From Sulfolobales archaeon (GTDB lineage Archaea > Thermoproteota > Thermoprotei_A > Sulfolobales > NBVN01): DNA of 24,482 bases. Where the stretch lies: contig JAWBTQ010000018.1 of assembly GCA_038841535.1 (NCBI GenBank), positions 1 through 24,482 of the forward strand, written 5' to 3'. The notes beneath the pieces were generated by a model. That model worked only from the letters and a program-made list of their open reading frames with translations, searched no databases and had not been told where the DNA came from. Shown piece after piece: positions 2,686 through 18,772 of the stretch (within the stretch, counting starts at the first letter, position 1; every line of letters starts with the position of its first letter). The translations under genes were made by a program, and so were the position numbers.

Positions 2686-3928
2686 GAGAACCATTGTACT
2701 GGTATCACCGAAGCTCACGAAGAGAAAACTCTCTGTTCTCAGCCGCGTCTACAAAGCCTACGGGGAGATACTGAGAGAAGCACTAGACTACATGTACTCC
2801 AAGAACGTAGCCTCATGGGTGAAAGTGAAGAAAGAACTCTACAGGTACTTCAGGGAAAAGTACTCGGAGCTACCATCGCACTACATTCATGAAGCAATAC
2901 GCGATGCATCCTCCAGGTTGAAGTCCTTCCTCAAGTTGAAGAAGAAAGGTCTTGCTTACACGGAGAAGCCAGAGGTTAAGCGGTGGAGTGTTGGCTGTGA
3001 TAACCAGATGTGGAAGATTACTCTACAAGGAGTTTCAATAGCCACTCATACGGGATGGGTAAACGTACCGTTGCTACTCCACAAGCAGTTCTACGGGTAT
3101 TGGAATAATGGTTGGAGTCTTAGAGGCTCATGTAGGTGGAAGCTGGTGAATGGGAGACTAAAGCTCTACGTAGTGTTCTCCAAGAGCGTGGAGACCAGAG
3201 CAAGCTACAGCAAGGTTATCGGTGTGGATGTTAACGAGAACAACGTAACTCTCTTCATATTCCCCGACAATAAAGCAGTAACAGTTGTAACCAACCACAG
3301 CAGGATTGTCCTGGGCTACGCCTACAGGAGGAGAGTTCTCCAGGAAAATCATGGAAACAACACGAGGTCTCTCAGGATAGCTTTTAGGAAGCTACGGGAG
3401 AAGTACGTTAAAAGAGACCTGAGGAACAAGGTAGTATCTCTCGTAGTTAAGGTAGCTAGTGTGGAGAACGCTGTCGTTGTTCTGGAGAAGCTCCTCAAGA
3501 GGTTTCAGGATAGAGCACTAGAGAAGAACGGGCCGAAGTCTCTGAATGCACATAGGCTTAAGCAATCAGCCATCAGAGGCATCCAGAAGCATGTAGTGGA
3601 GAAAGCACTAGAGCATGGTGTAAGAGTAGAGCTCGTAGATCCGAGGAACACATCCAGAAAATGCCCGTTATGCGGCTCCAGCCTAGCTCCCGTGACGGGC
3701 AATGCCCAGAGGAGAGGCTGGAGCCCTAGGTTTGTGAAGTGCATGAAGTGCGGTTTCACCCACGACAGAGACGTAATAGGAGCGTGGAACATAGCTCTAA
3801 AACTAGATGTGAGCCCTGTGCCGTTGGGCTCGAAGGGTGCCCATGACTCCTGCGTGGAGTGGTCAGTGACCACGGTGAACCGCAGGGCTGAGGCACAACC
3901 CGCCCTAGGAAAACCTACAAAAACCTAG
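2657..3928 (+). CDS. tnpB: RNA-guided endonuclease TnpB
   Basis: RuvC-I GVDVN, RuvC-II VVLEKL, Zn finger TSRKCPLCG...KCMKCG and RuvC-III HDRDVIGAWNI. The D-E-D triad is intact. Confidence 0.95.
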   Translation: MLRSQQGILERTIVLVSPKLTKRKLSVLSRVYKAYGEILREALDYMYSKNVASWVKVKKELYRYFREKYSELPSHYIHEAIRDASSRLKSFLKLKKKGLAYTEKPEVKRWSVGCDNQMWKITLQGVSIATHTGWVNVPLLLHKQFYGYWNNGWSLRGSCRWKLVNGRLKLYVVFSKSVETRASYSKVIGVDVNENNVTLFIFPDNKAVTVVTNHSRIVLGYAYRRRVLQENHGNNTRSLRIAFRKLREKYVKRDLRNKVVSLVVKVASVENAVVVLEKLLKRFQDRALEKNGPKSLNAHRLKQSAIRGIQKHVVEKALEHGVRVELVDPRNTSRKCPLCGSSLAPVTGNAQRRGWSPRFVKCMKCGFTHDRDVIGAWNIALKLDVSPVPLGSKGAHDSCVEWSVTTVNRRAEAQPALGKPTKT

Positions 3929-4303: not shown

Positions 4304-5443
4304 TTAGCCTATAACTGCCAACTCCTTTACTAATCTCCCGGTCTTGAACCTCTCTAGCGTTAGGTTTTTAGCGATATCTATATACGGTTTCCCGTCGAGA
4401 ATCCACGATGCGATAAGTTTGCCTGTCACTGGACCCATCATCATCCCGTGACCACTGAATCCGGCAGCTATGAAGAGGTTCTCATATGGAGTCACCGGTC
4501 CGTAAATTGGGTGGTGGTCTGGAGTCATATCGTAGTAACCCATCCAGTACCTCAGGATGTTAACACTCGATAGGAACGGTAGGAGCTCTCTAAGAGGCTT
4601 GAGTATGTGCGGTACGGCATCTATTCTTTGGGAGTATATAGAGGCTCTCGGAGTATCTTCTAGGTCTCTAGCGAGTATCATGCTACCGTGCTCGTTTTGG
4701 GTTATGTGGGGCGACCCGGGGGTATCCCAGTCTATTATTAATGCTGGCCTGAGAGTTTCAGCGTAAGGCTCTGTTACATACGGGTGCCTCGGCACATCCA
4801 CGATTGGGACATCTACTCCGACCGTAGCTATTAGATCCCTACTACCTCCCCCAGCTGCTACAACCGCAGCATCGAATTCGACCGTCCCGCTGCTGGTCTC
4901 AGCAGCAACAACTCTATCGCCGCGCGGGATGAATTTAATCACTTTAGTGTTCGGTACTACTCTAACCCCCAGCTTCTTTACCTTAATGTATAGATTAACG
5001 AAGTTCTCTATTATAGGCATTCTACCAGCTGTAGGGTCAAACATTGCTCCGACTACTAGCTTGGTGTTAAGCCTGGGCTCTACACGCTTAACTTCTTCTA
5101 CGTCTAAAATTCGTGTAGGAACATCGTACTGGTGGTGGAAATCTACTAGCTTCTTAAATCCTTCGAGAGTCTCAGGTTTCCGTGCTACCCAGAGGTAACC
5201 TCTCCGCTCAAGCATAAACCCGAGCTCGTCTTTTAGAGCGAACCACTCACGTAAGCTCTCCTTCAAAAGCACTACGTGCTCTGGGGAAGTAAAGGAGGTC
5301 CTAAAGCAACCTAGGTTTCTCAGGGTAGCACCACTACCTGGATAGCTTGAGTCCACTACGGTTACATCTTTAACACCACGCTGAATGAGCTCGTACGCTA
5401 CGAACAACCCACTAATACCTGCTCCTACTATAAGGACCTTCAT
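4304..5443 (-). CDS. pdhB: Dye-linked proline dehydrogenase-type beta subunit (DAO/sarcosine oxidase beta family FAD oxidoreductase)
   Basis: GAGISG FAD motif, GSGATLRN.G, WMGYYDMTPDHHPIYG and AAGFSGHGMMMGP. Last gene of the A-F-X-B operon. Confidence 0.85.
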   Translation of the reverse strand: MKVLIVGAGISGLFVAYELIQRGVKDVTVVDSSYPGSGATLRNLGCFRTSFTSPEHVVLLKESLREWFALKDELGFMLERRGYLWVARKPETLEGFKKLVDFHHQYDVPTRILDVEEVKRVEPRLNTKLVVGAMFDPTAGRMPIIENFVNLYIKVKKLGVRVVPNTKVIKFIPRGDRVVAAETSSGTVEFDAAVVAAGGGSRDLIATVGVDVPIVDVPRHPYVTEPYAETLRPALIIDWDTPGSPHITQNEHGSMILARDLEDTPRASIYSQRIDAVPHILKPLRELLPFLSSVNILRYWMGYYDMTPDHHPIYGPVTPYENLFIAAGFSGHGMMMGPVTGKLIASWILDGKPYIDIAKNLTLERFKTGRLVKELAVIG

Positions 5444-5736
5444 GGCTTGACACCTTTTACGAAGTATCTGGCTGAAATAGGCACTATAGGTGGTCTTACT
5501 TTGTAGTTTAGTAGTACCTCATCTAATCTTCTCCCAGTAGCTCTAGCGAACATTCTCGCAGCGATCATGATACAGCTCCTACCCTGGCAGGGTCCAAAAC
5601 CTAGCCTAAGGTACTTCCTCAATAGCTCGAAGTCGTCTATACCCATTTCAATCGCTTTCCTAATGTCGTCTGCGGTTACGTCGTTACACCTACACACTAT
5701 AATAGTGTTACTAGCCTTACTTACTTCTCTACCCAT
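5440..5736 (-). CDS. pdhX: BFD-like [2Fe-2S] small subunit (delta) of the dehydrogenase complex
   Basis: CRCNDVT...RLGFGPCQGRSC and RPP motifs. 4-bp overlap with pdhB. Confidence 0.85.
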   Translation of the reverse strand: MGREVSKASNTIIVCRCNDVTADDIRKAIEMGIDDFELLRKYLRLGFGPCQGRSCIMIAARMFARATGRRLDEVLLNYKVRPPIVPISARYFVKGVKP

Positions 5737-6212
5737 ATAGCTCTCACCTCCATACCCAACCCTTTAGGTACTTTAACGGTGACTACGTATGTCTTATTTC
5801 TCTCCCAGACTCTAGTGACCGTTCCCTTCCCCAATTTCTCACCCGTTCTACTGAGTAAAGTTACTTCGTCACCGACCTTAGGTGCCGGGAGAAACTCGTG
5901 TGGTACCGTAACGTAGTCACCGTCCTCCTTGGAGAGGTCTACCACGAATGCCGCGAGACCTGGACATACTGCTACGCAAACACTACAGCCGGTACACTTA
6001 TTCCAATCAATCATCGGTAGGTCTATTAACCTCTCCATCTTTATTGCCTTTGTGGGGCAGTATGGAACGCATATATTACATGGTATCATCTCAGGACACT
6101 CGAGTACGGCTACGGGTCCCTTCTTCAGCCTACTCTCCGGCGGTAGCAAGTTAAGTGTGCTAAGCTCTTCGAGGCTTATGACACCGGTTTTCCTGAAGGA
6201 TGGAGTAGGCAT
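5721..6212 (-). CDS. pdhF: 4Fe-4S ferredoxin-like gamma subunit of the dehydrogenase complex
   Basis: ECPEMIPCNICVPYCP and CTGCSVCVAVCPGLA clusters, with a C-terminal VP.EFLP.P..G..V domain. Confidence 0.88.
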   Translation of the reverse strand: MPTPSFRKTGVISLEELSTLNLLPPESRLKKGPVAVLECPEMIPCNICVPYCPTKAIKMERLIDLPMIDWNKCTGCSVCVAVCPGLAAFVVDLSKEDGDYVTVPHEFLPAPKVGDEVTLLSRTGEKLGKGTVTRVWERNKTYVVTVKVPKGLGMEVRAIWVEK

Positions 6213-6219
6213 ACCCTAC

Positions 6220-7713
6220 TCACCCAAATGAAACAGGAGGTGGGTTCGCAGATCTTATTTTCTCTATCTCCTCCCTACTAACGGTTACCAGCTGCTTGCC
6301 GCGCCTAGCTCTAGCTAGAACTGGTGAAGCCCTATACTCATCCCATAGGAACCTGATCAACTTCTCTGTCTCCTCTTCGGCCTTACTTGCGCGTGAACCA
6401 TCAGATAGCTTAGAGACTATAGATAGAGCAGCTATTTGACCCTCGATAATAGCTGTTGTAGCCTCTTCGATACCCGAAGCATCACCAGCTACGTATAGGT
6501 TTTTAACAGACGTCTCTAGGTCTAGCGTCCTGAGAGGAACTAAGCCACCAAGGTCTGGAGACCACTTCATCGCAGCACCACACTGGGCAAAGAACCTAAT
6601 GTCCGGCTCGAGCCCTATCGCCAGCAAGACAAGGTCAACTTCGAATTTCTTCTCAGTTCCGGGCACCGGGTTGAAGTCATTGTCAACTGCTACAACCTCA
6701 GCCTCACTTACTTTACCGTTCCCACATACAGCTTTAAGTGTGTGCTGAAGCAGTATAGGAACTCCATATCTCTTAATCTTTGCGGCATGAACAAACCAAC
6801 CCCCCACTTCCGGAAGTATTTCGACTACTGCCTTAACCCTGACTCCAGCTTGAAGTAGCTGGTAGGAGATTATGATACCGACATTACCGGACCCTACTAC
6901 AAGAGCTCTATCTCCAGGCTTAACACCGTACTCATTCATAATAGTCTGAGCTCCTCCAGCACCTATCACACCTGGAAAGTCATTGTTTATGAAGTCGAGA
7001 TATCTTTCCGTAGCTCCGGTGGATCCTATTACGGCTTTCGGCTTAACTGTGTAATGCGCGTTTTTGCCGGATACACCCACGACTCCCCCTCTAAACACTC
7101 CGTACACTACGGACTGCGTCAAAGTCTTTACCCTCCCATTAGAGCCTATTTTCTTGGTGTATTCTTCAGCTATTTGGAAGCCCCTCATGCCACCAAAGAG
7201 CTCCACGTTTCCAAAGAATTTGTGTGTCTGCTTAAGGAGCTGACCACCTAGTCTAAAGTGTTCGTCAACGACTAGTACGTTGTAACCGTACTCAGCTACT
7301 TTAAGGGCAGCAGAAAGGCCCGATGGCCCGCCTCCAACAACTAAAACGTCTGTCTCGATCTCGTAGTTCTCTATGTTGCTCAGGTCTACCTGCTCGGTAG
7401 GTGGGCTAACCCACCCTCTCTGTCTTTCGACAACTAGTCCGTCTACTACGGGCTCCCTACAGGTCTTAGTGTTGGGGACCCCATTGACGATCATGAAACA
7501 GCTACTGCACTTACCGATCATGCAGAAGGGGCCTCTCGGTCTACTAAGGCTGGAGCTCCACGAGAGAGTGTCCACTCCAGCCGCATAGAGGGCTATAGCT
7601 ATGCTCTCTCCCTCGTAAGCCTCGACAGGTTGTCCCTCAAAGAAGAACGTCACCTTCTTGCCGCGTCGGAAGGATAGTATTGGGTGTTCCCAAATCCTCC
7701 TATTCCGCGGCGA
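6220..7713 (-). CDS. pdhA: Dye-linked proline dehydrogenase-type alpha subunit (2Fe-2S + FAD/NAD oxidoreductase)
   Basis: FCMIGKCSSC...C 2Fe-2S motif, GGGPSG, GGQLLKQTHKFFG, GSGNVG and AGDASGIEEATTA. The conserved-looking N-terminus RIWEHPILSFRRGKKVTF extends about 20 codons upstream of the ORF-track GTG (7653), so the start is uncertain. Confidence 0.88.
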   Translation of the reverse strand, partial: SPRNRRIWEHPILSFRRGKKVTFFFEGQPVEAYEGESIAIALYAAGVDTLSWSSSLSRPRGPFCMIGKCSSCFMIVNGVPNTKTCREPVVDGLVVERQRGWVSPPTEQVDLSNIENYEIETDVLVVGGGPSGLSAALKVAEYGYNVLVVDEHFRLGGQLLKQTHKFFGNVELFGGMRGFQIAEEYTKKIGSNGRVKTLTQSVVYGVFRGGVVGVSGKNAHYTVKPKAVIGSTGATERYLDFINNDFPGVIGAGGAQTIMNEYGVKPGDRALVVGSGNVGIIISYQLLQAGVRVKAVVEILPEVGGWFVHAAKIKRYGVPILLQHTLKAVCGNGKVSEAEVVAVDNDFNPVPGTEKKFEVDLVLLAIGLEPDIRFFAQCGAAMKWSPDLGGLVPLRTLDLETSVKNLYVAGDASGIEEATTAIIEGQIAALSIVSKLSDGSRASKAEEETEKLIRFLWDEYRASPVLARARRGKQLVTVSREEIEKIRSANPPPVSFG

Positions 7714-7821: not shown

Positions 7822-9315
7822 ATGTCTAGACCCGGAGACTCCAAGCCACTAATAGCCAAAACCTTCGAGCGGGCTTGGAGTAGCTTTGCATTATTGATGA
7901 CTGCTGTTGGGTGGTCTGTGGGTGCTGGAAACTACTGGAGGTTTTCGTGGAGAGCCGCTAACTACGGAGGCGGGAGCTTCCTCTTATCGTACCTGATATG
8001 GCTGATAATAGTCGCGTTCCCGCTCTCAGTAGCGGAGTACGCCATTGGTAAACTCGGTAGAGGTGGCCCTATCCACGGACCTTATAACCTCGCCGAGAGG
8101 CACAAAAAGTGGGCTGCCTTCGGAGGTATGTGGATGGCCTGGGCAGACTTCATGATAATGTGCTACTACTGGGTCGTTACCGGGTGGATATTCTACTATA
8201 TGCTACACGCAATAGCTGGAACCTTCTTTACGCCCGGATTCGATGCTAGTGCGTTCTGGAGCGAGTTCGGCTTCACGCCAGCATCTCTGGGTGTTGGAGC
8301 GTTCATGATGTTCCTCAGCATAATCGTTACGGCCCTCGGCATCAAGGGAATAGGTCAGGTCGCTAGGTTCATGTTCCCGCTCCTATTCATATTTACAGTC
8401 GGTTTAGCCATATTCACTGTAACCCTACCAGGCGCAGAAAAAGGACTCGAGTTCTATATGGTGCCGAGGCTTGAGGCTTTAGGGGACCCATCAACTTGGA
8501 TGCAGTCACTATCTCAGGTTATATGGAGTATTGGGATAGCTTGGGGCTTCTTCATATGTGCTGGTGCGTGGATGAGGAGAAACGATGACCCAACTTTAAC
8601 AGCTTTTGGTAACGTCGTGAATGACTCAGCTGTTGCGTGGATGGCTGGCACGGCTATCATACCGCTGATATTCGCTATTTCCGCTACTCCCTTTGAAGAC
8701 ATAAAGCAGGCGGGTACGGGACTAGCTTTCGTAGTCTTACCCCAGTTATTTAGGAAGATGGGGGCTGCTGGACACGTTTACGCAGTGTTCTTCTTTATTG
8801 CATTCTGGTTTGCTGCCTTTACTAGCTTAATAACTATACATGAAGTAGCTCTAAGACCTCTAAAAGACTTCGGCTTAAAGACCTGGCAAGCAGCTACGAT
8901 AACCGGAATCCTCGCGTTCTTCTGCGGCATCCCCACAGCTCTCAGTGGCGACTGGTTAGACTACTATGATACCGTCTGGGGTGTCGTCGGTTTGTCGTTA
9001 GGCCTCGTATTCATAGCACTCATAACGTCGTACTTTACCGACTCGGCTAAAGTGAGAAGGGGGTTAGCAGACATGGATGTAAAGCCCTTCATAAAGCTCG
9101 GGAGTTGGTGGGACATAATGCTCAAGGTAAACATTGTCGTTCCGATACTGTTCTTCGCTTGGTGGATAGTCTATGGAGAGTGGATTAGAGGTTGGGGGGC
9201 CGGTCTACACACGTACTACACGTACCCAGGAATGATCATACTGATCATAGGTGGCTTTATAATGTACTTCATAGTCGCCAAGTCTATAGAGAAGCAGGTT
9301 GGAAAGACAGGGTGA
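7822..9315 (+). CDS. Sodium-dependent amino acid transporter, NSS/SNF (SLC6, LeuT-like) family
   Basis: TM1 motif AVGWSVGAGNYWRF, GGGSFLLSY, AEYAIGK, YYWVVTGW, GTGLAFVVLPQLF and FAAFTSLI. About 12 hydrophobic segments. Confidence 0.92.
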   Translation: MSRPGDSKPLIAKTFERAWSSFALLMTAVGWSVGAGNYWRFSWRAANYGGGSFLLSYLIWLIIVAFPLSVAEYAIGKLGRGGPIHGPYNLAERHKKWAAFGGMWMAWADFMIMCYYWVVTGWIFYYMLHAIAGTFFTPGFDASAFWSEFGFTPASLGVGAFMMFLSIIVTALGIKGIGQVARFMFPLLFIFTVGLAIFTVTLPGAEKGLEFYMVPRLEALGDPSTWMQSLSQVIWSIGIAWGFFICAGAWMRRNDDPTLTAFGNVVNDSAVAWMAGTAIIPLIFAISATPFEDIKQAGTGLAFVVLPQLFRKMGAAGHVYAVFFFIAFWFAAFTSLITIHEVALRPLKDFGLKTWQAATITGILAFFCGIPTALSGDWLDYYDTVWGVVGLSLGLVFIALITSYFTDSAKVRRGLADMDVKPFIKLGSWWDIMLKVNIVVPILFFAWWIVYGEWIRGWGAGLHTYYTYPGMIILIIGGFIMYFIVAKSIEKQVGKTG

Positions 9316-9320
9316 GATGC

Positions 9321-9434
9321 ATGGTCTGGGTGGTGTTCTTCATAATTGCTTGGCTCTTCGTCGTAGCCTCGTTCTATACATGGTATAAAGCAGTAGAAAA
9401 CGAAAAGAAAATTAGAGAAATAGAGAAGAGGTGA
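9321..9434 (+). CDS. 37-aa single-pass membrane microprotein (candidate NSS small subunit)
   Basis: MVWVVFFIIAWLFVVASFYTWYKAVENEKKIREIEKR. GGGTGA RBS overlaps the transporter stop codon, 5 nt before the ATG. Confidence 0.7.
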   Translation: MVWVVFFIIAWLFVVASFYTWYKAVENEKKIREIEKR

Positions 9435-9435
9435 G

Positions 9436-9549
9436 ATGATGTCTTACTTCCCCTTCGATCCTGTGCTCGTAACTATAATTTCGCTAGCGGCAACTGTGGC
9501 CTGGCTTCTTTCGGTATACTGGGCATCATCTAAAGGAGCAAAGTCTTGA
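9436..9549 (+). CDS. 36-37-aa single-pass membrane microprotein
   Basis: (M)MSYFPFDPVLVTIISLAATVAWLLSVYWASSKGAKS. GAGGTGA RBS overlaps the previous stop codon. Below the ORF-track length cutoff. Confidence 0.65.
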   Translation: MMSYFPFDPVLVTIISLAATVAWLLSVYWASSKGAKS

Positions 9550-9604
9550 GATAGAGTAAAGGTATTCTTTTTAAATATAGCTATTTCTATCTCGCATTTT
9601 ATCG

Positions 9605-9640
9605 TTGAAGATTTCAATAACTTTTTTTGTTTTTAAGCAC
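9605..9640 (+). promoter_or_regulatory. Candidate operator palindrome plus TATA box for the racemase-family gene (the T-tract may also terminate the upstream operon)
   Basis: TTGAA-GAT-TTCAA at 9605-9617. TTTTAAG at 9631-9637, about 20-25 nt before ATG 9658, which has no clear RBS. Confidence 0.35.
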
Positions 9641-9657
9641 GTATTATTGGCGTAATC

Positions 9658-10644
9658 ATGAAGTCTTTGAGTTTTGTTGAGGTACACAACGCTGGAATGC
9701 CTGTTAGGATAGTGTTTGCTCCAGGAGTTCCAGGTAGCGACATGATGGAGAAAAAGGCTTACTGCGAGAAAAACTTAGACTGGATCCGCAAGCTGCTAAC
9801 GTATGAACCGAGAGCTTCGAGCAGTTCTTACGGAGTTCTCGTAACTAACCCTGCCAGTAGCGAGGCTCACATTGGTGCTCTCTTTTTTGACTCAAGTGGT
9901 TGGCACGATATGTGTGGACACGCCTCTATGGGTTTGGCTTGCTACCTAGTTAGGAGTGGGCTAGTCAGCCACGCTAACGTAGCTATGGAAATCCGCTTGG
10001 AGACTCCGGTCGGTATAGTAAAGCTGTCTGTTGATCCCTCCGGTAAGGTCACTCTAGTCAACGTGCCATCATTCGTTGTAGGAGACATTAGAGTTAGGTC
10101 AGCTAAGTTCGGCAACCTCACTGTCCACCTAGCGTTCGGTGGTAACCTATACGGCATCGTAGACCTTGACGAACTCGGAATTAAATGGGATTCGGTCACT
10201 ATAAAGGAGCTGGCTGAGCTATCTGGAGAACTCTGGAGTAGCGTATCAGAGAGTGCTAAGAGCCTATGTCCGTACGAGCTCTACGGATTTCGGTTCTCTA
10301 AGAACATCTCTCTCAAACCACCAAGATACTACGGGATACTGGTCTTCGGAAACCCGCAGAGGCCCCTCCTAGATAGATCACCCTCAGGAACAGGTTCTTC
10401 AGCCCACCTAGCATATCTTTACAGCAGTGGTGTTGTGAGAAGAATGGAGTTTGTAGAGTTCGTTAGTGCGATAGGTACGGTGTTCTTGGGGAGGGTTGTA
10501 GGTGAGACAGTTTTTGAAAAGTGGAATGCTATAGTGCCTGAAATATCTACAGCAACTAGAGCTTGCTACATGACTGCTTACACTACGGTTGTCCTAGAGC
10601 CGGATGACCCATTAGGAGAGGGTTTTACACCACTTCTCATATAG
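9658..10644 (+). CDS. Proline racemase superfamily protein with a Cys/Ser catalytic pair
   Basis: HNAGMPVRIV, YEPR, DMCGHAS (C86), LETPVG, NVPSF, AFGGNLY, DRSPSGTG (S243) and C-terminal DDPL.EGF. Confidence 0.92.
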   Translation: MKSLSFVEVHNAGMPVRIVFAPGVPGSDMMEKKAYCEKNLDWIRKLLTYEPRASSSSYGVLVTNPASSEAHIGALFFDSSGWHDMCGHASMGLACYLVRSGLVSHANVAMEIRLETPVGIVKLSVDPSGKVTLVNVPSFVVGDIRVRSAKFGNLTVHLAFGGNLYGIVDLDELGIKWDSVTIKELAELSGELWSSVSESAKSLCPYELYGFRFSKNISLKPPRYYGILVFGNPQRPLLDRSPSGTGSSAHLAYLYSSGVVRRMEFVEFVSAIGTVFLGRVVGETVFEKWNAIVPEISTATRACYMTAYTTVVLEPDDPLGEGFTPLLI

Positions 10645-10961
10645 TTAAATAGGTAAGCAGCAACTTAAACAGTGCGCTGCTAAGGGCTCTCTTTTACCTC
10701 TGCTTTGCCTACTACTTTGCTCTATTGCTTTTTCTCTTAGTAAAACCAGAGGTAATGTTGAGAGTTTTGGGTTGCTCTAACGTTTCCGAACTCGCCAAGT
10801 TCGTTTCTTCCATATTATCATTATTATCACTTAGCCATAATTACTGAACACATTGCGTATAATGGCTTTCTTTCTCTGAAAAAGCATTTGATGTAAAACA
10901 CTAAACCTTTGAAACGATTTATACCATTTAACATTTAAATACTCAATGCCGCCTTATAGAG

Positions 10962-12884
10962 GTGGTGGCGCCTTTGAAGCACACCACATCAAGTCTAGAG
11001 AGGGCTCTACCCATACTTATAGCTGTCCTAATTATTAGTTCGGCCGTAACCTACATGTACTCTGGAGAGAGTGCTAGGGCTCTCAGAATAACGGCTGAAA
11101 CTTATGATAGATGGATAAAGCCCTGTACATGCTACGGAGGTACACTTAGGGTAGCGCTTCCAAGCGATATAACGACCCTTAATTGGTGGATTGCGGGGGC
11201 TTCATGGGATCTGCTAACTCTAGACCTTATCTACGATAGACCCCTAAGGATAGTTAACGGGACTTTAACGTGGGAGGTTGCCGAATGGCTTGAGTATAGC
11301 TCTGACTACCTTGTTCTAACCATGGGCATTAAGAAGGGCATTAAGTTCCACGACGGAGTCGAGCTGACGGCTGAAGACGTAGCTTTCACGATTAACGTAT
11401 TAGCTAATAAGACGTGGACTTACTATCACGGCTACTTTACCTCCGTTAACAGGGCTGAAGCTATCGATAAGTACACCCTAAAGATAGTCTTCAATCAGCC
11501 TGATTCTCAGTTCATACTTAACTCGCTAACAGTCGTTAGAATAATGCCTAAGCACGTGTGGGAACCGCTCCTGAGCTCTATGGGTGACGAGCTCTCTAAA
11601 TACTCACCTAAGCCAACAGAGCTTATAGGTAGTGGTCCCTTTAAGTTTGTTGAGAGAGTAGCTGGTCAATACATAAAGTTCACCGTAAATGAGGGTTACT
11701 GGATGGGTAGATCCTGTATTGACGAAATACTTCTCATACCGATTACTGACGTAAGCATAGTCATACTAGGGATTCAGAGAGGTGACTTAGACGTATACGC
11801 CTGGGGTGTAGATGCTGCCGTCGTCCCTACACTCCTCGCAAACCCGAATGTTGGGATACACGTTTATACGTCAGAGTTCTTCTACCATTGGGGTCTGAAC
11901 AACCTCGTTTGGCCGCTCAACGTATCTAAGTTCAGACTAGCTCTCTCTTACGCAGTTAACCGCGATGCTATAGTTAGAGACATACTACTAGGTTACGGCC
12001 TCCCTGGCAGTCCAGGTGTTGTAGCTCCCGTAGGTTCGTGCGCTCCCTGGTATAACCCGAACATAGAGAAACTAGTTTACTATGACCCAAAGAAAGCGAG
12101 CGAGATACTCGATGAGGTAGGCTTTACAGACAAAGACGGCGATGGGTGGCGCGATGGACCTAATGGTGAACAAGTAGTTGTAGAAATATACTCCCCAACA
12201 GCAGGCTACGACCCGATAAGAGCGAGAGCTGCCGAGTTCATTAAGTCAGACCTAGAGAAGATCAAGGTTAAGGCAGTAGTTTACTACTACGAGTGGGCCG
12301 CTCTCTGGCCACTGATTAGAGAGGGAAAGGTTATGTCTTGGCTCCTAGGTAGCGGCTGGTCTCCAGATATAGGCTGGCTTAACTTCAGGTTTAGAAGTAG
12401 ACCGGAGGGTGCCGGAAACTGGGCTAGGTACTCGAACCCGGAGGTAGACGCCTTAATAATAGAGCTACTCAGCACGTTTGACTTCGAGAAGCGAAAGGAG
12501 CTTGCTTGGAAAATACAGGAGAAGATAGCTCTCGATGCTCCCGTCATAAATCTTTACTACAGGTCTTACCCGAACCCGTACAGAACGGATAAGTTCGAGG
12601 GCTGGTTCTACGACACATCAGACAGCGTCTTCAACAGAATAACTATACTCAGGCTTGGTCTAAAGACGGCTGTGTGTCCATCACCGGTCACCCCCACTCC
12701 AACACCTACACCCACCCCCACTCCCACGCCTACTCCAACCGTAGCTACGGTGACAGTGACTAGAAGCTTAACTGTAACAGTAACGCTAACACCTACCGCT
12801 GATTACACCTGGGTTGCTATACCAGTAGTGCTTATCGTTGTAGTAGCTATTGCTATCGCCCTACTATTGACAAGAAGGAGGTAG
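10962..12884 (+). CDS. Oligopeptide/dipeptide ABC transporter substrate-binding protein (SBP family 5), membrane-anchored
   Basis: KFHDGVELTAEDVAFT, IGSGPFKF, AVNRDAIV and NWARYSNPEVDALI motifs. N-terminal hydrophobic signal, PT/T-rich linker, C-terminal TM helix ending in RRR. Confidence 0.93.
   Translation: MVAPLKHTTSSLERALPILIAVLIISSAVTYMYSGESARALRITAETYDRWIKPCTCYGGTLRVALPSDITTLNWWIAGASWDLLTLDLIYDRPLRIVNGTLTWEVAEWLEYSSDYLVLTMGIKKGIKFHDGVELTAEDVAFTINVLANKTWTYYHGYFTSVNRAEAIDKYTLKIVFNQPDSQFILNSLTVVRIMPKHVWEPLLSSMGDELSKYSPKPTELIGSGPFKFVERVAGQYIKFTVNEGYWMGRSCIDEILLIPITDVSIVILGIQRGDLDVYAWGVDAAVVPTLLANPNVGIHVYTSEFFYHWGLNNLVWPLNVSKFRLALSYAVNRDAIVRDILLGYGLPGSPGVVAPVGSCAPWYNPNIEKLVYYDPKKASEILDEVGFTDKDGDGWRDGPNGEQVVVEIYSPTAGYDPIRARAAEFIKSDLEKIKVKAVVYYYEWAALWPLIREGKVMSWLLGSGWSPDIGWLNFRFRSRPEGAGNWARYSNPEVDALIIELLSTFDFEKRKELAWKIQEKIALDAPVINLYYRSYPNPYRTDKFEGWFYDTSDSVFNRITILRLGLKTAVCPSPVTPTPTPTPTPTPTPTPTVATVTVTRSLTVTVTLTPTADYTWVAIPVVLIVVVAIAIALLLTRRR
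12690..12740 (+). repeat. T(PT)8 coding repeat (linker of the binding protein)
   Basis: 17 alternating Thr/Pro codons with varied third positions. Confidence 0.9.
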
Positions 12885-13873: not shown

Positions 13874-14757
13874 AGTCTGCTCGAGTTCTGAGCTTAAAGA
13901 GCAAGCTGAGGGAGTTTTGGTCTGTATATAAGAGAGATAAAGCCGCCGTTGTAGGACTAGTCATCTTCCTTATTATACTAGCTATCGCCGTATTTGCAGA
14001 CTACATAGCACCTTACAATCCCTACCAGAGAGTAGGACCTCCGTACCAAAGACCAAGCTGGAAACACATTCTCGGAACAAACGACATTGGGCAAGACATC
14101 TTCAGTGAAGTAATCTACGGCACTAGGGCGTCCCTCTTTATAGGCTTTCTAGCTGCTATTAGTGGGACTGTGCTAGGTACTTTAGTAGGCCTAGTTGCCG
14201 GCTACCATGGAGGAAAGACCGACGAGATATTAATGAGGGTCACGGATATATGGCTATCTATCCCAACTCTGCTGTTCTCAGTATTCCTAGTAGCAGTTAT
14301 CATTAGGACCGGTGGAATCCCGATGTTCTACTCGGTTATACTGGCAATAGCGCTGACTTCCTGGCCTCCGGTAGCTAGACTAGTTAGATCTGCTACCTTA
14401 TCTATTAAGGAGAGGCCATACATTGAGTCGGCAATAGCTCTCGGTTCTTCAGCTACGAGGATAATGTTCCGACACATTATACCTAACGTAGCACCAATCA
14501 TCCTCGTAGAGGTTGTCGTTAGAACAGCTATGGCTATGCTCACGGAAGCCTCACTCAGCTTCCTCGGGCTAGGGGACCCTACTATCAAGAGCTGGGGAAC
14601 AGTGCTTCACTTCGCCATGATCAAGAATGCCCTAATACTAGGTCTATGGTGGTGGTTCTTACCCCCAGGAATTATGATAGCAGTAACAGTCATGTCGGTG
14701 ATGATGATCGGTAGGGGGTTAGAGATATACTTTAACCCGCGGTTAAGGAAGTATTAA
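13870..14757 (+). CDS. Peptide ABC transporter permease (OppC/DppC-like)
   Basis: PSWKHILGTNDIGQDIFS, YGTRASL, ARLVRS, YIESAIALG and EASLSFLGLGDP motifs. ATGA overlap with the upstream permease. Confidence 0.93.
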   Translation: MKSARVLSLKSKLREFWSVYKRDKAAVVGLVIFLIILAIAVFADYIAPYNPYQRVGPPYQRPSWKHILGTNDIGQDIFSEVIYGTRASLFIGFLAAISGTVLGTLVGLVAGYHGGKTDEILMRVTDIWLSIPTLLFSVFLVAVIIRTGGIPMFYSVILAIALTSWPPVARLVRSATLSIKERPYIESAIALGSSATRIMFRHIIPNVAPIILVEVVVRTAMAMLTEASLSFLGLGDPTIKSWGTVLHFAMIKNALILGLWWWFLPPGIMIAVTVMSVMMIGRGLEIYFNPRLRKY

Positions 14758-14823
14758 AGACCCTCTCAACAGATTTAGATTTTTGTCCAGCTTAAATCTT
14801 AATCTTCTTCGTTAATTATTTGG

Positions 14824-15560
14824 GTGCCCGAGTGTGAGCATACTGGAGTAGTCTCAGCAGCAGCATTTAGAGTTTACGGATTTCAACTACACACATCTCT
14901 TACTGCCGGGGTGATAGTAGGATTAGCTGTAGGGGCAGTTAATGGGTTGCTGGTAACTAAAGCAAGAATCTCGTCTTTCGTTGCTACACTTGCTTCTCTA
15001 GTAGCGGGTAGAGGACTCATATTAGTGTTAACTGAGGGACAACCCATCGTAGGACTCTCGCCGTATAGAGTACTTACCATAGAGCTCGCCGGGGTACCGG
15101 TTATGGTGTGGCTATTCATAGCGTTTGGAGCAATAAACTACGTACTACTTAAAAGGACTTCTGTAGGTTTACTGACGTATGCGATCGGAGGTAACGAAGA
15201 AGCCGTTAGATACTCTGGTGTTAGAGTCGATGTAGTTAAGCTAGTAAACTTCTCACTAGCCGGAGGTTACTACGCTATTGCCGGGCTAATGATGAGCGCT
15301 AGACTAGAGGTAGCCTATCCGCGACCGGGTGGGGTTACGAACTCGACGCTATAGCTTCATGTGTTCTAGGGGGCATAATGCTGTCAGGAGGTGTCGTCAA
15401 CCCTCTCGGACCTGTCGTTGGAGCATACATGCTAACGCTATTGACAAACATCTTGATACTCCTTGGAGTAAACCCTTACCTTCAGTGGATTGGAAAAGGT
15501 GTGGTCCTGGTAACGGCTGCTGTAGCATTGACGAGAGGAGTTAGATACGCTATACGCTAA
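14824..15560 (+). pseudogene. 5'-truncated, frameshifted sugar ABC (CUT2, RbsC-like) permease
   Basis: GAVNGLLVTK.RISSFVATL and YAIGGNEEAVRYSGV in one frame. After a 1-nt deletion near 15320 (TAT CC- GCG ACC GGG TGG) the protein continues as TGWGYELDAIASCVLGG...LGVNPYLQ..KG in another frame. The N-terminal region, including the GxIDLSV motif, is absent. Confidence 0.85.
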
Positions 15561-16076
15561 GTAGGGGTTCAGCTCCTGTTTACTTGGGTTCAATCAATCA
15601 CTCTGGCCACTTTTCACATTGTATTAAAGATCTCACCGGACTCAGGAACCTCAAAAGTAGCCTAGCGCATGTAGCATCTCAAAGAGCTCTTCAGCACTAA
15701 GCAAACAAGCTTTCCACGAAGGTTATACCGACGGGTATCTACCAGTACGTAACCCAAGGCACAATATGAGGACGGACTAGCTATTCCTGTTCTACAAATA
15801 GTACCTACAGAGCACAGCCGAGGGCAACAGCTTCCTAGCTAGTGATAACAGTTAAGGGTTAGGCTCTTCGTTTTTCCGTAAAACAGTAATCTCAGAGAAC
15901 AGGCACGGTCGATTCCATGTCCTAAAGTGCCCCGGCAGCTTAGAATCTTAGTTTCAGGGCAACAGGTGCTTCCCAAGCTAACGACACAGAGCATATAAGT
16001 AGAGATGTATAGAGTCTATCAGCCGATCTGCCTAGTACGAGTTATAAGTTACGGGAGTTCGACTCTGAGTTAAAAA

Positions 16077-17390
16077 TCAATTATTACCTAGTTTCCTCTT
16101 TAAGACCTTTCCCTCCTTTATAACTAAGACTATGTTGTTAGGGTCTAATAGCGTATTTATGTTGTCGAGGGGATTTCCTTTGATTGCTACGATGTCTGCA
16201 TACTTTCCTTTTTCTAGAGTTCCTACTTTATTTTGAAGCCCCGCTACTTCAGCCGCATTGCGCGTAGCGGCTACTAAGGCATCAGCTGGTTTCATTCCAA
16301 TTCTCTCGACAAGCATTTTGATCTCGAGAGAGTTTTCACCATGCCTGAAGGGCCCGCCTATGAAGTCTGAGCCTGCAGAAATCTTTACACCACTTCTATA
16401 TGCTTTTCTAATATTCTCGCAGTGCACCTTAAACACTTCCTCTGCTTTCTTAAGTCCCCACTCAGGATACCCAGCCTTCGATCCTTCCTCGAGTATCTTA
16501 TGGTACGTAATCGTCGTCGGAACCAATATTACCTCTTTCTCCACTGCGAGTCGTATTCCTTCATCGTCTATAAACGATGCATGAGCTATGACCTTTACAC
16601 CTGCTAGAATAGAGTTTTTAATACCTAGCTCTGAGTACGAGTGAGCATGCACGAAGGTTCCTACAGCCCTAGCCTCCTCAACGATAGCCCTAATCTCCTC
16701 TAGGGAGAACTGTCTAAACTCTGGTCTATCCCTTTGAGAAAGAACTCCACCAGAAGCCATGATCTTTATGAAGTCAGCACCCTCCCTCAGGACGTACCTG
16801 GCGGCTTTACGGCATTCATCAACGCCATCACATATTAACCCGGCAAACGGAGATACTAGCTTCTTTGTTGTTCTAACATCAACCCACTCAACGGGTACAT
16901 AGTGGATGTCCCCGTGACCGAAAGTTTGAGTTAGAGGTGGACCGGCAGCAACAATCCTAGGACCTACTACTGTACCTTCATCTACAGCGTACTTAAGCCT
17001 GAGGCCTATGATACCGCAAGCGTCAACAAACGTAGTGTATCCAGCATTAACTAGTGCTTCCAGGTCTCTTGCTGCCCTTAAAAGAAGCAACTCGTAAGGC
17101 GTCAGCAGAGGCTCCTTAACAAAGTCTCCTGTTCTACAGCCAGAGAGATGAGCATGAGCGTCTATGAGCCCAGGCATAGTGAAGCTGCCTTTAAGATCTA
17201 AGACTTCAGCCTCGTTAGGCATTTCGACATATCCTCTAGTACCTACATCAATAATCACTCCATTCCTTATTACAATCACTCCATTCTCTATGACCCCTAG
17301 GTCAGATGCCGTGAATAGTCTAGCATTGACTATTGTGAGAATCTTGTCTTCTCTAGTAGCTTGAGTCACGGCGTATCTCCTTAGCTTCAC
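16077..17390 (-). CDS. Metal-dependent amidohydrolase (Xaa-Pro dipeptidase/prolidase-like subgroup)
   Basis: MPGLIDAHAH, GADFIKIMASGG (putative carboxylated Lys), VHAH, IAHAS, AGSD and GTLEKGKYADIV. Confidence 0.9.
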   Translation of the reverse strand: MKLRRYAVTQATREDKILTIVNARLFTASDLGVIENGVIVIRNGVIIDVGTRGYVEMPNEAEVLDLKGSFTMPGLIDAHAHLSGCRTGDFVKEPLLTPYELLLLRAARDLEALVNAGYTTFVDACGIIGLRLKYAVDEGTVVGPRIVAAGPPLTQTFGHGDIHYVPVEWVDVRTTKKLVSPFAGLICDGVDECRKAARYVLREGADFIKIMASGGVLSQRDRPEFRQFSLEEIRAIVEEARAVGTFVHAHSYSELGIKNSILAGVKVIAHASFIDDEGIRLAVEKEVILVPTTITYHKILEEGSKAGYPEWGLKKAEEVFKVHCENIRKAYRSGVKISAGSDFIGGPFRHGENSLEIKMLVERIGMKPADALVAATRNAAEVAGLQNKVGTLEKGKYADIVAIKGNPLDNINTLLDPNNIVLVIKEGKVLKRKLGNN

Positions 17391-18772
17391 TTACTATTTT
17401 CTTTACTTTTTGTTAGTAGCGATAGTGCTAGTAGTACCGCAAAAGCTATTGGTGCTGAGACTAGTGCTGCATGTATTCCGCCAGGCTTTGCTAATACAAC
17501 ATCCCAAATCACTGTCAAGGCCGCACCTACAACAAGACCCGCTATCCCACCTATTCTAGTAACTCTCTTTCCCAACAGCACTACGCTGAGAAGTACTACG
17601 GTTATGGCAGCTCCGTACATGGTGTACGAGTACATCTGTATTGCGAGAACAGATGGGAAGTACATGCCTAAAACGTATGCTACTACCGCAAAGATGGCTA
17701 TGAAAGCCCTAGTTACAGTGAAAATCTCTCTATCGCTAGCCGCCGGTCTAAACAGCCTTTTATATATGTCTACGGCAGCGCAGGTTGAAGCCGTCAGCAG
17801 GTAAGAGTTTCCGGTAGTTATGATAAAGCCCGCGACTCCCGCTAGGAATACAGCTCCTAGGACATCAGGCATCTTAGTCGACCATATGAGAACCGACATG
17901 CCCGCAGGTATGCTGAAAGCTGCCCTAGAGAAGAAGGCTACTAAAGAAACGAGAGGACCAACGATCAATGCAGCAGTAAGCCACATAATCATAGCTCTCT
18001 TGGCTACAGTATCTGCTCTTGCGGCAGATACTCTTTGCCACATGTTCATCTCCCCAAGAAGTAGTAAGAGCAGAGGGAGGCACGTACTTACGAGAGCTGC
18101 CACAGTCATGCCACCAGTTATGGTTAAGTGCGTTGGTGGAACTTTCTCCACTGCCGAAGAGAATCCACCAACATATGAAGCAGCTGTCGCAACACCTATA
18201 ACTAAGCTTAGAAGCATTAAGAAGGCAGTTATAGCGTCTGTATAGGCTACTGAGACTAGCCCGCCACTAATAGCGAGTAGGGTTATTACTATAGCACCAA
18301 TTATCGTGCCGAGCTCTGTACTGATTCCCGTAGTGACATTCAGAATGTAGCCCAGACCGGTAAACTGGTACGAGACTATACCCATGTGGGCTAGTGCCAC
18401 GATTACAGCGGCTATACTCCTTCCCTCAGGTCCCAGTCTGGATTCGATTATTTCCGGCACGGTATACTTGTAAGTACCCCTTATTCTAGGGACTAGGAAG
18501 TAGAGTAGAGCTATGCCTACAGGCGGCATGAGCATGAACAATATAGCGGGGCCTAAGCCGTAGAGATAGCCTAATGACGCAGGTCCTCCAATAACGGTAC
18601 CCGAACCGAACCATGTGGCTATCAACGTGCCGCCCGCTATTAAAGCCCCAAGCCTCCTGCCAGCCATTAAGAAGTCCTCTAGAGTTCTAACACCCTTCTT
18701 AGTTTGCCATAGTCCTATGAAAATTATTAGAGTCATATAAATGATTACACCCAGGAAGAGTATGAGATTCAT
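17387..18772 (-). CDS. Sodium:solute symporter (SSS/SLC5, PutP-like)
   Basis: DFLMAGRRLG, TLIATWFGSG, YTVPE, GGLVSVAYTD, WQRVSAA and TGNSYLL. The ATG at 18772 follows an AGGTG RBS, so it is preferred over 18781. 4-bp overlap with the amidohydrolase. Confidence 0.92.
   Translation of the reverse strand: MNLILFLGVIIYMTLIIFIGLWQTKKGVRTLEDFLMAGRRLGALIAGGTLIATWFGSGTVIGGPASLGYLYGLGPAILFMLMPPVGIALLYFLVPRIRGTYKYTVPEIIESRLGPEGRSIAAVIVALAHMGIVSYQFTGLGYILNVTTGISTELGTIIGAIVITLLAISGGLVSVAYTDAITAFLMLLSLVIGVATAASYVGGFSSAVEKVPPTHLTITGGMTVAALVSTCLPLLLLLLGEMNMWQRVSAARADTVAKRAMIMWLTAALIVGPLVSLVAFFSRAAFSIPAGMSVLIWSTKMPDVLGAVFLAGVAGFIITTGNSYLLTASTCAAVDIYKRLFRPAASDREIFTVTRAFIAIFAVVAYVLGMYFPSVLAIQMYSYTMYGAAITVVLLSVVLLGKRVTRIGGIAGLVVGAALTVIWDVVLAKPGGIHAALVSAPIAFAVLLALSLLTKSKENSK

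Follow-up and report, generated by a model that had tools for sequence, protein, structure and literature searches.

The locus described here raises the question of what an enzyme of the proline racemase superfamily does when its first catalytic residue is cysteine and its second is serine. The gene lies in a stretch of 24,482 nucleotides from a Sulfolobales archaeon, referred to below as the window, and its product is called P0001. An earlier note, made from the letters alone, had given Cys/Cys, Cys/Thr, Ser/Cys and Ser/Thr as the pairs of characterised members. This list agrees with the published papers, with one difference: the note gives Ser/Cys as the pair of a 3-hydroxyproline epimerase, and the structurally characterised Ser/Cys enzyme B9JQV3 is classed as a 4HypE that has promiscuous 3HypE activity. 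The note knew of no characterised Cys/Ser type, and we likewise found no published naming of one; further pairs may appear among minor clusters in the supplements of Zhao 2014. The best explanation of the data is that the gene encodes an intact, functional member of a discrete uncharacterised branch of the superfamily, with its function a matter of prediction.

Membership of P0001 in PF05544 is borne out by profile, fold and motifs alike. The profile covers residues 7-324 of the protein (1.6e-64; 218.5 bits against a gathering score of 27), and the AF2 model has a pLDDT of 95.9. According to Foldseek, the model has the two-domain DapF-like fold, with TM scores of 0.82-0.89 to structures of the superfamily (about 0.88 to 6r76, 1w61 and 6j7c) and 0.58-0.65 to DapF. 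A search of the ESM Atlas with P0001 returned generic 'proline racemase' clusters only. The enzyme gene is present as a single copy in its own genome, and contigs from two DNA runs of other studies (X9 and X11) match positions 10155-10700 of the window with zero letter differences. The features of the locus are collected in Table 1.

Table 1. Features of the Cys/Ser enzyme locus (window coordinates)
Feature	Position	Strand	Remarks
Beta-type DAO-family flavoprotein	4304..5443	-	PF01266 1.5e-65; best solved relative 1y56_B, 1.3e-52
Delta-type 98-aa subunit (SO_alpha_A3 / BFD-like 2Fe-2S)	5440..5736	-	
Gamma-type 2x[4Fe-4S] ferredoxin-like subunit	5721..6212	-	
Alpha-type subunit (Fer2_4 + Pyr_redox_2) of four-gene flavin/iron-sulfur dehydrogenase	6220..7653	-	soxA-family, 184 bits
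SNF (neurotransmitter:sodium symporter family) transporter gene	7822..9315	+	Directly upstream of enzyme gene; PF00209 4.8e-37
Small hydrophobic ORF, 37 aa, after transporter gene	9321..9434	+	Conserved in window, L001, L002, L003, L025, L029, L059
Second small hydrophobic ORF, 37 aa	9436..9549	+	Conserved in window, L001, L002, L003, L025, L029
A/T-rich TTTTTAAG box	9630..9637	+	21-28 nt before ATG, read from the sequence
Cys/Ser proline-racemase-superfamily enzyme gene (P0001)	9658..10644	+	328 aa, stop-free ORF
HNAGMP, residues 10-15	9685..9702	+	In place of canonical HTxGEP; Asn11 and Met14 clade-invariant
EPRASSSSYG, residues 50-59	9805..9834	+	In place of canonical EPRGHxDM(Y/F)G; Tyr58 retained
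WHDMCGH, residues 82-88	9901..9921	+	First catalytic residue Cys86 (TGT, 9913-9915), His88
DRSPSGTG, residues 239-246	10372..10395	+	Asp239, Ser243 (TCA, 10384-10386; second catalytic position), Thr245

The four motifs read in the earlier note were confirmed in the ORF. Ser243 aligns exactly with the second catalytic Cys of AsProR (7pb3) and TlProR (6j7c), and with the Thr of the T. litoralis t3HypD (6r76). Residues H10, M85, C86, G87, H88, D239, R240, S241, P242, G244 and T245 are conserved in the clade of close homologues as well as in the outgroup; they include the presumptive L-face base Cys86 and the predicted binders of the imino-acid core, His88, Asp239 and Thr245. In the superfamily, His, Asp and Thr at these sites bind the carboxylate and the ring nitrogen (Watanabe 2015), and the L (trans) isomer is handled by the residue in first position (legend to Fig. 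5 of Zhao 2014). Tyr58 and Tyr209 correspond to the Tyr76-Tyr241 pair of human t3HypD, in whose closed form the Asp of the EPRGHxD motif pairs with the Arg of DRSP. Within the clade, this Asp (position 56) is mostly Ser or Asn, and the usual His54 is absent in all members but one. Further clade-specific traits are a 3-residue insertion before DRSP, which usually holds Arg or Lys, and 14 near-invariant residues outside the universal core (N11, M14, C36, W82, H83, R212, G226, L228, S243, S247, H250, Y253, F268 and P325). Of these, Trp82 and His83 precede MCGH, which starts at residue 85. Because His83 replaces the residue that occupies the pocket position three before Cys86, the pocket is predicted to be more polar than in ProR-like rows. 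These pocket assignments derive from alignments and passages of papers, and many of the altered residues may lie at the domain-closure interface instead of in the pocket.

The Cys86/Ser243 pair is invariant in 59/59 full-length close homologues (42-90% identity), all with MCGH and DRSPSGT. With the fragment P0126 included, every one of the 60 clade proteins covering position 243 has Ser there, with Thr in 0 and Cys in 0; the earlier note had named Cys or Thr in close homologues as the sign of a lineage-specific decay mutation, and 0/60 show it. A total of 45 columns, both catalytic motifs included, are invariant over 53 sequences. The Ser codon in 17 loci takes all four TCN forms (TCC 7, TCA 5, TCG 3 and TCT 2), and both catalytic codons show synonymous turnover. 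The note's codon arithmetic (one change separates TCA from ACA, two separate it from TGY) is correct for this gene, as is its exclusion of a single-base error from Cys; elsewhere that exclusion does not carry over, with TCC or TCT one step from Cys in 9 of the 17 loci. Thr is always one step away, yet neither residue was found. To judge from these sequences, selection at position 243 disfavours Cys as well as Thr. Sequencing error and lineage-specific decay were ruled out as sources of Ser243 by the 59/59 conservation, the four TCN codons and the X9 and X11 contigs.

The Cys/Ser proteins form a clade of their own, as the note had anticipated. It is supported by a quick LG+G4 tree (SH-aLRT 100, with a long stem branch of about 0.6), by a drop in bit scores from 283 to 176 outside it, and by the shared motifs and insertion. 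Its members come from Sulfolobales/Desulfurococcales and Thermoplasmata MAGs, that is, from thermoacidophile lineages only, in two phyla. The pair itself is not unique to the clade, being present in 6/206 non-clade relatives as well. Four of these non-clade proteins nest inside the t3HypD-like group of the tree, of which 'DMYG' is typical; the Cys/Ser clade is placed outside this group, not nested in it. No clade member reaches an NCBIfam equivalog cut-off, and since 0/81 outgroup proteins do so either, the tree was labelled by catalytic pair only. P0001 scores highest with the proline racemase model (EC 5.1.1.4; NF010576; 205.7 bits against 556), compared with 171.7 (cut-off 540) and 111.2 (cut-off 550) for t3HypD and 173.9 (376), 127.8 (450) and 98.3 (442) for the 4HypE models NF010578, NF052296 and NF010577, all far below the cut-offs. 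Its pair is Cys/Ser, not the Cys/Cys of proline racemase, whose site-1 Phe it also lacks, nor the Cys/Cys or Ser/Cys of 4HypEs, nor the Cys/Thr or Ser/Thr of t3HypDs.

Comparison with characterised enzymes gives a mixed picture. The best PDB sequence matches are Cys/Cys ProR/HypE enzymes (AsProR, 7pb3, 2.2e-53; TlProR, 6j7c, 1e-52; TcPRAC, 1W61, belongs to the same type), which share the MCGH and DRSPxGTG framework, and Phe230 of P0001 aligns with site 5 (Phe in ProR, Trp241 in TlProR); they differ in having Cys where P0001 has Ser243 and Phe rather than Tyr at site 1 (Tyr58 aligns with Phe62 of TlProR). The best Foldseek hit is a Cys/Thr t3HypD, 6r76_A (TM 0.88, 33% identity). Like P0001, it has a first catalytic Cys, a hydroxyl residue in second position and the Tyr pair, and the gene for the archaeal t3HypD of T. 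litoralis is likewise clustered with heteromeric L-ProDH genes. In contrast to t3HypDs, the clade has Ser never exchanged for Thr, His83 where they have Ser, no Glu of HTxGEP, no His/Asp of EPRGHxD and no linked Pyr2C reductase, and it is phylogenetically separate. Active natural members with a hydroxyl residue replacing a catalytic Cys include the Ser/Cys 4HypE B9JQV3 (4LB0) and the Ser/Thr t3HypD B9K4G4 (4K7G); there, Ser is first (L-face), whereas in P0001 it is second (D-face), a mirror arrangement, and identity in structural alignment is only about 24%. The E. coli Thr/Cys aspartate/glutamate racemase EcL-DER is also a cofactor-free two-base enzyme in which a hydroxyl residue stands in place of one Cys; it works essentially one way from L to D. 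It belongs to the Asp/Glu racemase family and has Thr, not Ser, and serves as a mechanistic analogy only.

The earlier note had also asked about synteny, and the surroundings are indeed conserved. Of 24 loci, 21 have a gene for a secondary amino-acid transporter within 5 kb of the enzyme gene, and 12 have an SNF gene within 4 kb. Genes of the sarcosine-oxidase/L-proline-dehydrogenase type (DAO) occur within 5 kb in 11/24 loci, in two distinct gene orders, and directly adjoin the enzyme gene in five of them (L006, L007, L012, L029 and L030). The beta subunit of the window and the Thermoplasmata DAO are both closest, among solved structures, to 1y56_B, which we take to be the P. horikoshii L-proline dehydrogenase. 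Family members without this enzyme (G035, G010, G030 and G020) also conserve the alpha-gamma-delta-beta operon, which therefore looks like a housekeeping proline dehydrogenase. Since the enzyme gene adjoins an amino-acid importer and proline-dehydrogenase-type genes, P0001 probably processes an imported proline-like compound. Other genes in the surroundings are a peptide ABC transporter, an Xaa-Pro-dipeptidase-like gene and a PutP-like symporter, and four Thermoplasmata loci have class-III aminotransferase and AsnC genes. Fold, motifs, purifying selection on Cys/Ser and gene linkage are directly supported for P0001.

Genes of known hydroxyproline pathways were sought in the same neighbourhoods. 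Pfam scans of 17 loci showed neither OCD nor Ldh_2 (the Pyr2C reductase families) within about 7 kb, and an OCD seed search of all 24 loci gave no match. An OCD-family gene is present elsewhere in 6/6 carrier genomes tested; such homologues are common (over-cut-off matches in 5/14 genomes of a control comparison), so this says little. Ldh_2 genes number three in one carrier genome (G000) and were found in 0/5 others. Compared with a 4HypE neighbourhood (DAO, DHDPS-type deaminase, semialdehyde dehydrogenase), DAO occurs in 11/24 loci, PF00701 in 0/17, and Aldedh at L016 only among the 17. A 4-hydroxyproline pathway is not favoured, with no DHDPS-type gene linked in the 17 loci and the sole homologue of the genome on another contig. 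The scanned neighbourhoods gave no sign of a D-proline reductase context. As to transcription, the TTTTTAAG box may be an archaeal TATA element from which the enzyme gene would get a nearly leaderless transcript of its own; the spacer holding it is poorly conserved among relatives. One metatranscriptome run (X20) contains a 1900-nt contig, derived from a relative and about 92% identical in its letters, that spans positions 8789-10668, from the 3' end of the transporter gene through the small ORFs and the enzyme gene; it may reflect DNA carry-over, and transcript start and level are not readable from it.

For the function of P0001, we lean, tentatively and at somewhat short of an even chance, towards dehydratase-like chemistry with a single base, acting on an imino acid of the hydroxyproline type; the substrate, elimination step and downstream route we infer as follows. 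The retained binding site (His88, Asp239, Thr245) suggests that the substrate is probably a proline derivative, which would be brought in by the neighbouring secondary transporter. Cys86, on the face serving L-isomers, would take the alpha-proton, and Ser243, on the opposite face and presumably unable to serve as a thiol-type second base, would together with the clade-specific His83 hold or protonate a polar substituent. An unlinked OCD-family reductase might then convert the product to L-proline, to be oxidised by the adjacent alpha-beta-gamma-delta complex. The dehydratase-like reading is favoured by the invariant pair with its TCN codon turnover and by the association of a second-position hydroxyl residue (Thr) with dehydratase activity in solved relatives, as stated in passages of Zhao 2014 and of a review. 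It is also favoured by the shared Tyr pair ('DMYG' being typical of the t3HypD-like group), the His83-polar pocket, and the four non-clade Cys/Ser proteins in the t3HypD-like group. The transporter (21/24) and ProDH-type DAO (11/24) linkage, the OCD genes of 6/6 carriers and the T. litoralis parallel add to this. Against it count the lack of a linked Pyr2C reductase gene, the hallmark of known t3HypDs, the position of the clade outside the t3HypD-like group, and the slightly higher ProR score. Moreover, Thr never occurs at position 243, so that Ser cannot be taken as a neutral substitute for the Thr of dehydratases, which points its methyl group at C-alpha. Ser acting as a true base at the first position in B9JQV3 and B9K4G4 and the use of linkage to DAO as a mark of epimerases also speak against it, and the pocket roles here derive from alignment.

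That epimerase signature leads to a reading to which we give a lesser, though still serious, chance, namely that P0001 is an epimerase or racemase for proline or hydroxyproline, in which Cys86 deprotonates the L-isomer, Ser243 gives a proton from the other face, and the linked DAO-family dehydrogenase, here D-specific, draws off the D-imino acid. The earlier proposal of a dehydratase-like or new activity on a cyclic imino acid fits the data, and the linkage is about equally compatible with such an epimerase feeding a flavin dehydrogenase. Linkage to a DAO-family gene is the 4HypE pathway signature in the legend to Fig. 1 of Zhao 2014, and B9JQV3 performs two-base epimerisation, while EcL-DER turns L-Asp into D-Asp. 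In addition, Ser, compared with Thr, has no methyl group toward C-alpha, the ProR model scores best, and the aminotransferase and AsnC genes of the Thermoplasmata loci could carry 2-oxo-5-aminovalerate onward. The resemblance to 1y56_B argues for an L-specific partner, but the heteromeric D-hydroxyproline dehydrogenase of Pseudomonas is a homologue of archaeal L-ProDH, and stereospecificity therefore cannot be read from homology alone. An epimerase is harder to reconcile with an operon that is conserved without it, with the absence of Cys, a better acid/base only one mutation off in 9/17 loci, and with the lack of a linked DHDPS-type deaminase. Furthermore, the Asn three residues on, proposed in passages of the literature to position a first-position Ser, has no evident mirror in the clade, where position 246 is Gly or Ser.

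We judge it unlikely that P0001 has another imino acid as its substrate or catalyses a reaction novel for the family; examples would be anti-elimination from cis-3-hydroxy-L-proline (Ser243/His83 on the leaving-group face) or action on a proline analogue with a modified ring that is common in hot, acidic environments. The 14 clade-specific residues, the insertion, the long stem with its bit-score gap, the selection at position 243 and the confinement to thermoacidophile lineages of two phyla would suit such a departure. However, the core-binding residues are unchanged, the peptide and proline-related genes nearby point to ordinary catabolism, much of the remodelling may concern domain closure, and no result singles out a candidate substrate. 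Somewhat doubtful, too, is the claim that Ser243 takes part in catalysis and that the clade represents a fifth catalytic type, confined to thermoacidophilic archaea and doing what no characterised member does; such a type might eliminate water in anti fashion from a cis-3-hydroxy-imino acid (Ser243/His83 on the leaving-group face), or couple a kinetically one-way L-to-D inversion to the linked flavin/iron-sulfur dehydrogenase. A Cys-to-Ser change at a catalytic position of two-base racemases usually cripples racemisation, which would fit a catalytically dead binding protein or a decaying copy. We consider this very improbable, with an intact frame, a confident model, the invariant columns, codon turnover, a single copy, and a gene kept with conserved partners in two phyla.

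The proline racemase superfamily is a textbook case of function assigned from catalytic pairs and gene neighbourhoods, with four pair types named in the literature. Here, a fifth pair is strictly conserved, and with it go altered lid and pocket residues and a stable setting of transporter and dehydrogenase genes. Should P0001 prove to be a standard dehydratase or epimerase of 3-hydroxyproline, what remains is a rule for annotating about 60 sequences. If the clade is a fifth type with either of the chemistries suggested above, hot-acid habitats would have a way to process a proline derivative that arises or builds up there. The activity of the enzyme would bear on how much chemistry a D-face hydroxyl residue supports in a cofactor-free racemase fold, and on a gap concerning how peptide-degrading thermoacidophilic archaea handle proline derivatives.

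The 328-codon reading frame of the enzyme is uninterrupted, and its product (P0001) matches PF05544 (Pro_racemase) from end to end in Pfam (1.6e-64). A motif script placed all four motifs, with the pair Cys86/Ser243, exactly where the earlier note had read them, and structure-relative alignments agree. Residue by residue, Ser243 aligns with the second catalytic Cys of the proline racemases (ProR) of A. sticklandii (7pb3) and T. litoralis (6j7c), and with the Thr of T. litoralis trans-3-hydroxyproline dehydratase (t3HypD; 6r76). An AlphaFold2 model, with a 132-sequence alignment as input, was very confident (pLDDT 95.9) and superposed on structures of the superfamily with a TM of ~0.88.

A search of 5.8 billion proteins with P0001 returned 258 matches at E <= 1e-10. 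The first 58 (P0002-P0059; 42-90% identical) share the peculiarities of the query, and MCGH and DRSPSGT are present in 59/59 of these proteins, the query included. Moreover, xNxGMx occurs in every member of this clade covering the N-terminus and WHDMCGH in nearly all; fragment P0126 also has the Ser, and fragments P0118 and P0131 end before it. In an exhaustive HMMER search of 1.84 billion cluster representatives, those of the clade scored 358 and 283 bits, with a drop to 176 for the best protein outside it, which marks an isolated group. Among 17 loci with DNA, the Ser codon is TCC in seven, TCA in five, TCG in three and TCT in two (TGT in 11 and TGC in six for Cys86). As all are TCN, a single mutation would give Thr in every locus and Cys in 9/17, yet neither was ever found at this position in the clade. 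Selection acts on Ser itself at position 243. In addition, positions 10155-10700 have no differing letters in contigs from DNA runs of two other studies. Sequencing error and the decay raised earlier, under which close homologues would carry Cys or Thr, are ruled out by the pair in all 59 proteins, the four Ser codons and the identical independent contigs.

Named relatives come from metagenome-assembled genomes of Sulfolobales, Desulfurococcales and Thermoproteota, and of Thermoplasmata. Whole-genome searches found a clade-level match in 7/10 genomes of the window's own genus, including that of the window, which has one PF05544 gene. No such match occurred in the 51 other searched genomes of the same family and order; two genomes of another genus have relatives of only 36-37%.

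The alignment comprised 132 of 268 fetched proteins: 53 clade members and 79 others, hand-picked to span the best matches and all catalytic-pair types. Truncated P0020, P0021, P0028, P0032 and P0059 were omitted, as was P0042, for no particular reason. In a quick unrooted tree (IQ-TREE, LG+G4), the 53 members are separated from all other rows by a branch supported at SH-aLRT 100, and their stem is ~0.6 changes per site long, which bears out the proposal that these Cys/Ser proteins form one group. Of the others, 24 rows make up a t3HypD-like group ('DMYG', mostly Cys/Thr) and 55 a group resembling ProR and hydroxyproline epimerase (HypE), and the clade attaches at the node between them, the root not being placed. 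Catalytic pairs among the 268 proteins were C/C (151), C/S (65), C/T (33), C/G (8), S/C (4) and a few others. Six of the 65 C/S proteins fall outside the clade, four inside the t3HypD-like group (P0083, P0108, P0111 and P0112) and two with MCGD (P0196 and P0262); thus, the pair label needs at least four changes on the tree. None of the clade or outgroup proteins tested reached an NCBIfam equivalog cut-off. Separately, eight otherwise ProR-like relatives (P0138, P0150, P0154, P0158, P0168, P0171, P0215 and P0227) have a Cys/Gly pair (DRSPGGTG or DRSVGGTA), apparently another uncharacterised pair of the superfamily.

Residues conserved in both clade and outgroup include H10, G13, E50, P51, R52, M85, C86, G87, H88, D239, R240, S241, P242, G244 and T245. 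Another 14 hardly vary within the clade and are seldom seen elsewhere (N11, M14, C36, W82, H83, R212, G226, L228, S243, S247, H250, Y253, F268 and P325). His83 presumably replaces the pocket Leu that lies three residues ahead of the Cys in the T. cruzi structure. A three-residue insertion, usually with Arg or Lys, precedes DRSP. The carboxylate- and ring-nitrogen-binding positions, sites 3, 6 and 7 in the two motifs according to Watanabe 2015, belong to the conserved residues; by alignment, Tyr58 falls on ligand site 1, which is Phe in ProR, and Phe230 on site 5. In most clade members, the His and the Asp typical of EPRGHxD have been lost; in human t3HypD, that Asp salt-bridges the Arg of DRSP upon domain closure (2022 paper). 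The Tyr76-Tyr241 hydrogen bond described in the same paper has its counterpart in Tyr58-Tyr209 of P0001, where both Tyr are retained.

Upstream first, the enzyme gene is flanked by a divergent beta-delta-gamma-alpha operon of L-proline-dehydrogenase type, an SNF transporter gene and two small ORFs, and followed by a Dpp-type peptide ABC operon, an amidohydrolase and a symporter.

Features of the window around the enzyme gene
Feature	Position	Strand	Remark
Beta subunit, DAO	4304-5443		divergent four-gene operon
Delta subunit, SO_alpha_A3/BFD	5440-5736		divergent four-gene operon
Gamma subunit, 2x4Fe-4S	5721-6212		divergent four-gene operon
Alpha subunit, Fer2_4 + Pyr_redox_2	6220-7653		divergent four-gene operon
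SNF transporter	7822-9315		upstream of enzyme gene
Two conserved hydrophobic ORFs, 37 aa each	9321-9434 and 9436-9549	+	after SNF gene
Enzyme ORF	9658-10644	+	328 codons, no interruption
HNAGMP	from residue 10 of P0001		motif script
EPRASSSSYG	from residue 50 of P0001		motif script
MCGH	from residue 85 of P0001		motif script; Cys86 = TGT, 9913-15
DRSPSGTG	from residue 239 of P0001		motif script; Ser243 = TCA, 10384-86
Peptide-binding protein	10962-12884	+	C-terminal (Thr-Pro)n linker, then hydrophobic anchor + RRR
BPD_transp_2 permease fragment, 176 aa	within 14757-16077		after Dpp-type operon
Amidohydrolase (Xaa-Pro-dipeptidase-like) and sodium:solute symporter	16077-18781	-	4-nt overlap of the two genes

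The small ORFs differ from their relatives mostly at third positions (loci L001, L002, L003, L025 and L029), and the first also occurs in L059, a locus without the enzyme gene. Their products may be small subunits of the SNF transporter; MetP is an NSS transporter that functions together with such a subunit, MetS. The Dpp-type operon encodes a binding protein, which by its sequence looks like an archaeal one membrane-anchored at the C-terminus, and two permeases, with ATPase genes absent. In the corresponding place (15176-18591), the 91% identical L001 has a PfkB kinase, a double ABC ATPase and a full-length permease, so a deletion or rearrangement seems to have occurred in the window. The amidohydrolase scored 308.6 bits against the Xaa-Pro dipeptidase model (below the cut-off of 500) and the symporter is distantly like PutP; both are in keeping with a proline-peptide theme in this region. 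The stretch 2053-3928 (+), which separates an aminotransferase gene from the dehydrogenase operon, has the arrangement of an IS607-type element: a 210-aa serine recombinase (HTH_17 + Resolvase) and a 423-aa TnpB/Cas12f-like protein are encoded by overlapping genes.

Synteny was compared by tblastn with seed proteins and blastp of called ORFs across 24 non-redundant clade loci (the window, L001-L016 and L025-L031), leaving out near-copies (L023 of the window, L024 of L001, L032 of L006) and fragments of <= 4.2 kb (L033-L038). The suggested conserved synteny was found: a secondary amino-acid transporter (SNF, SSF or APC) lies within 5 kb in 21/24 loci (all except L009, L028 and L031; in L026 via a contig-edge fragment), and a proline-dehydrogenase-type DAO gene in 11/24. 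Besides the order operon, SNF, enzyme, there is a second order (L006, L029 and L030) with the enzyme gene convergent on beta and SNF beyond alpha; the linkage has therefore outlasted rearrangement. Thermoplasmata loci have APC permeases and a single-subunit DAO beside the enzyme gene (L007 and L012), and four of them additionally AsnC and class-III aminotransferase genes. PF02423, PF02615 and PF00701 were absent from the 17 Pfam-scanned neighbourhoods.

According to published work, the two Cys of ProR and HypE act from opposite faces, and the remaining base of t3HypD also assists departure of the 3-OH. Zhao 2014 assigns the first-position residue to the L/trans isomer and the second to the D/cis isomer, places Thr at the second Cys of t3HypD with its methyl against C-alpha, and gives first-position Ser as a true base in epimerase B9JQV3 and dehydratase B9K4G4. 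Irreversible conversion of L-Asp to D-Asp is described for an Asp/Glu racemase with a Thr/Cys pair (2021 review).

The clade retains the L-face Cys and has a hydroxyl on the D-face, and we rank the possible functions accordingly. We tentatively regard one-base elimination on a hydroxy-imino acid as the most likely: in its favour are a Tyr pair like that of t3HypD, the polarity of His83 and a Thermococcus precedent in which t3HypD is clustered with L-proline dehydrogenase, although the usual reductase linkage is missing and Thr is strictly excluded at position 243. An epimerase is somewhat less likely: the linkage to DAO genes favours it, but these genes have L-proline dehydrogenase affinity and Cys is excluded at position 243 too. 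A new substrate or reaction, hinted at by the long stem and the 14 residues peculiar to the clade, we regard as less probable still, and a dead protein is very improbable. A full-text literature search found no paper with both 'proline racemase' and 'Cys-Ser', and a wider search including Thermoplasma and Sulfolobus, like further searches, gave no description of such a type; in the literature searchable here, the pair is not named.

For both the window beta subunit (1.3e-52) and the Thermoplasmata DAO (1.1e-34), the closest solved structure is 1y56_B, which we take to be the beta subunit of P. horikoshii L-proline dehydrogenase. In L060 (G030:C49, 3739-10906), which has no Cys/Ser enzyme, the operon lies two genes from an SSF transporter and an OCD/mu-crystallin homologue with 60% identity to its counterpart in the window's genome, a hint that in that genus the complex and an OCD-family enzyme act together. 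In all, four relatives without the enzyme (G035, G010, G030 and G020) have the operon at 49-73% identity, and G004 has operon, SNF gene and first small ORF with the enzyme gene absent at that place. The clade is a real, conserved and uncharacterised subfamily and, since the operon occurs in genomes without the enzyme, the dehydrogenase looks like a resident proline-oxidising system, and the enzyme like an accessory joined to it.
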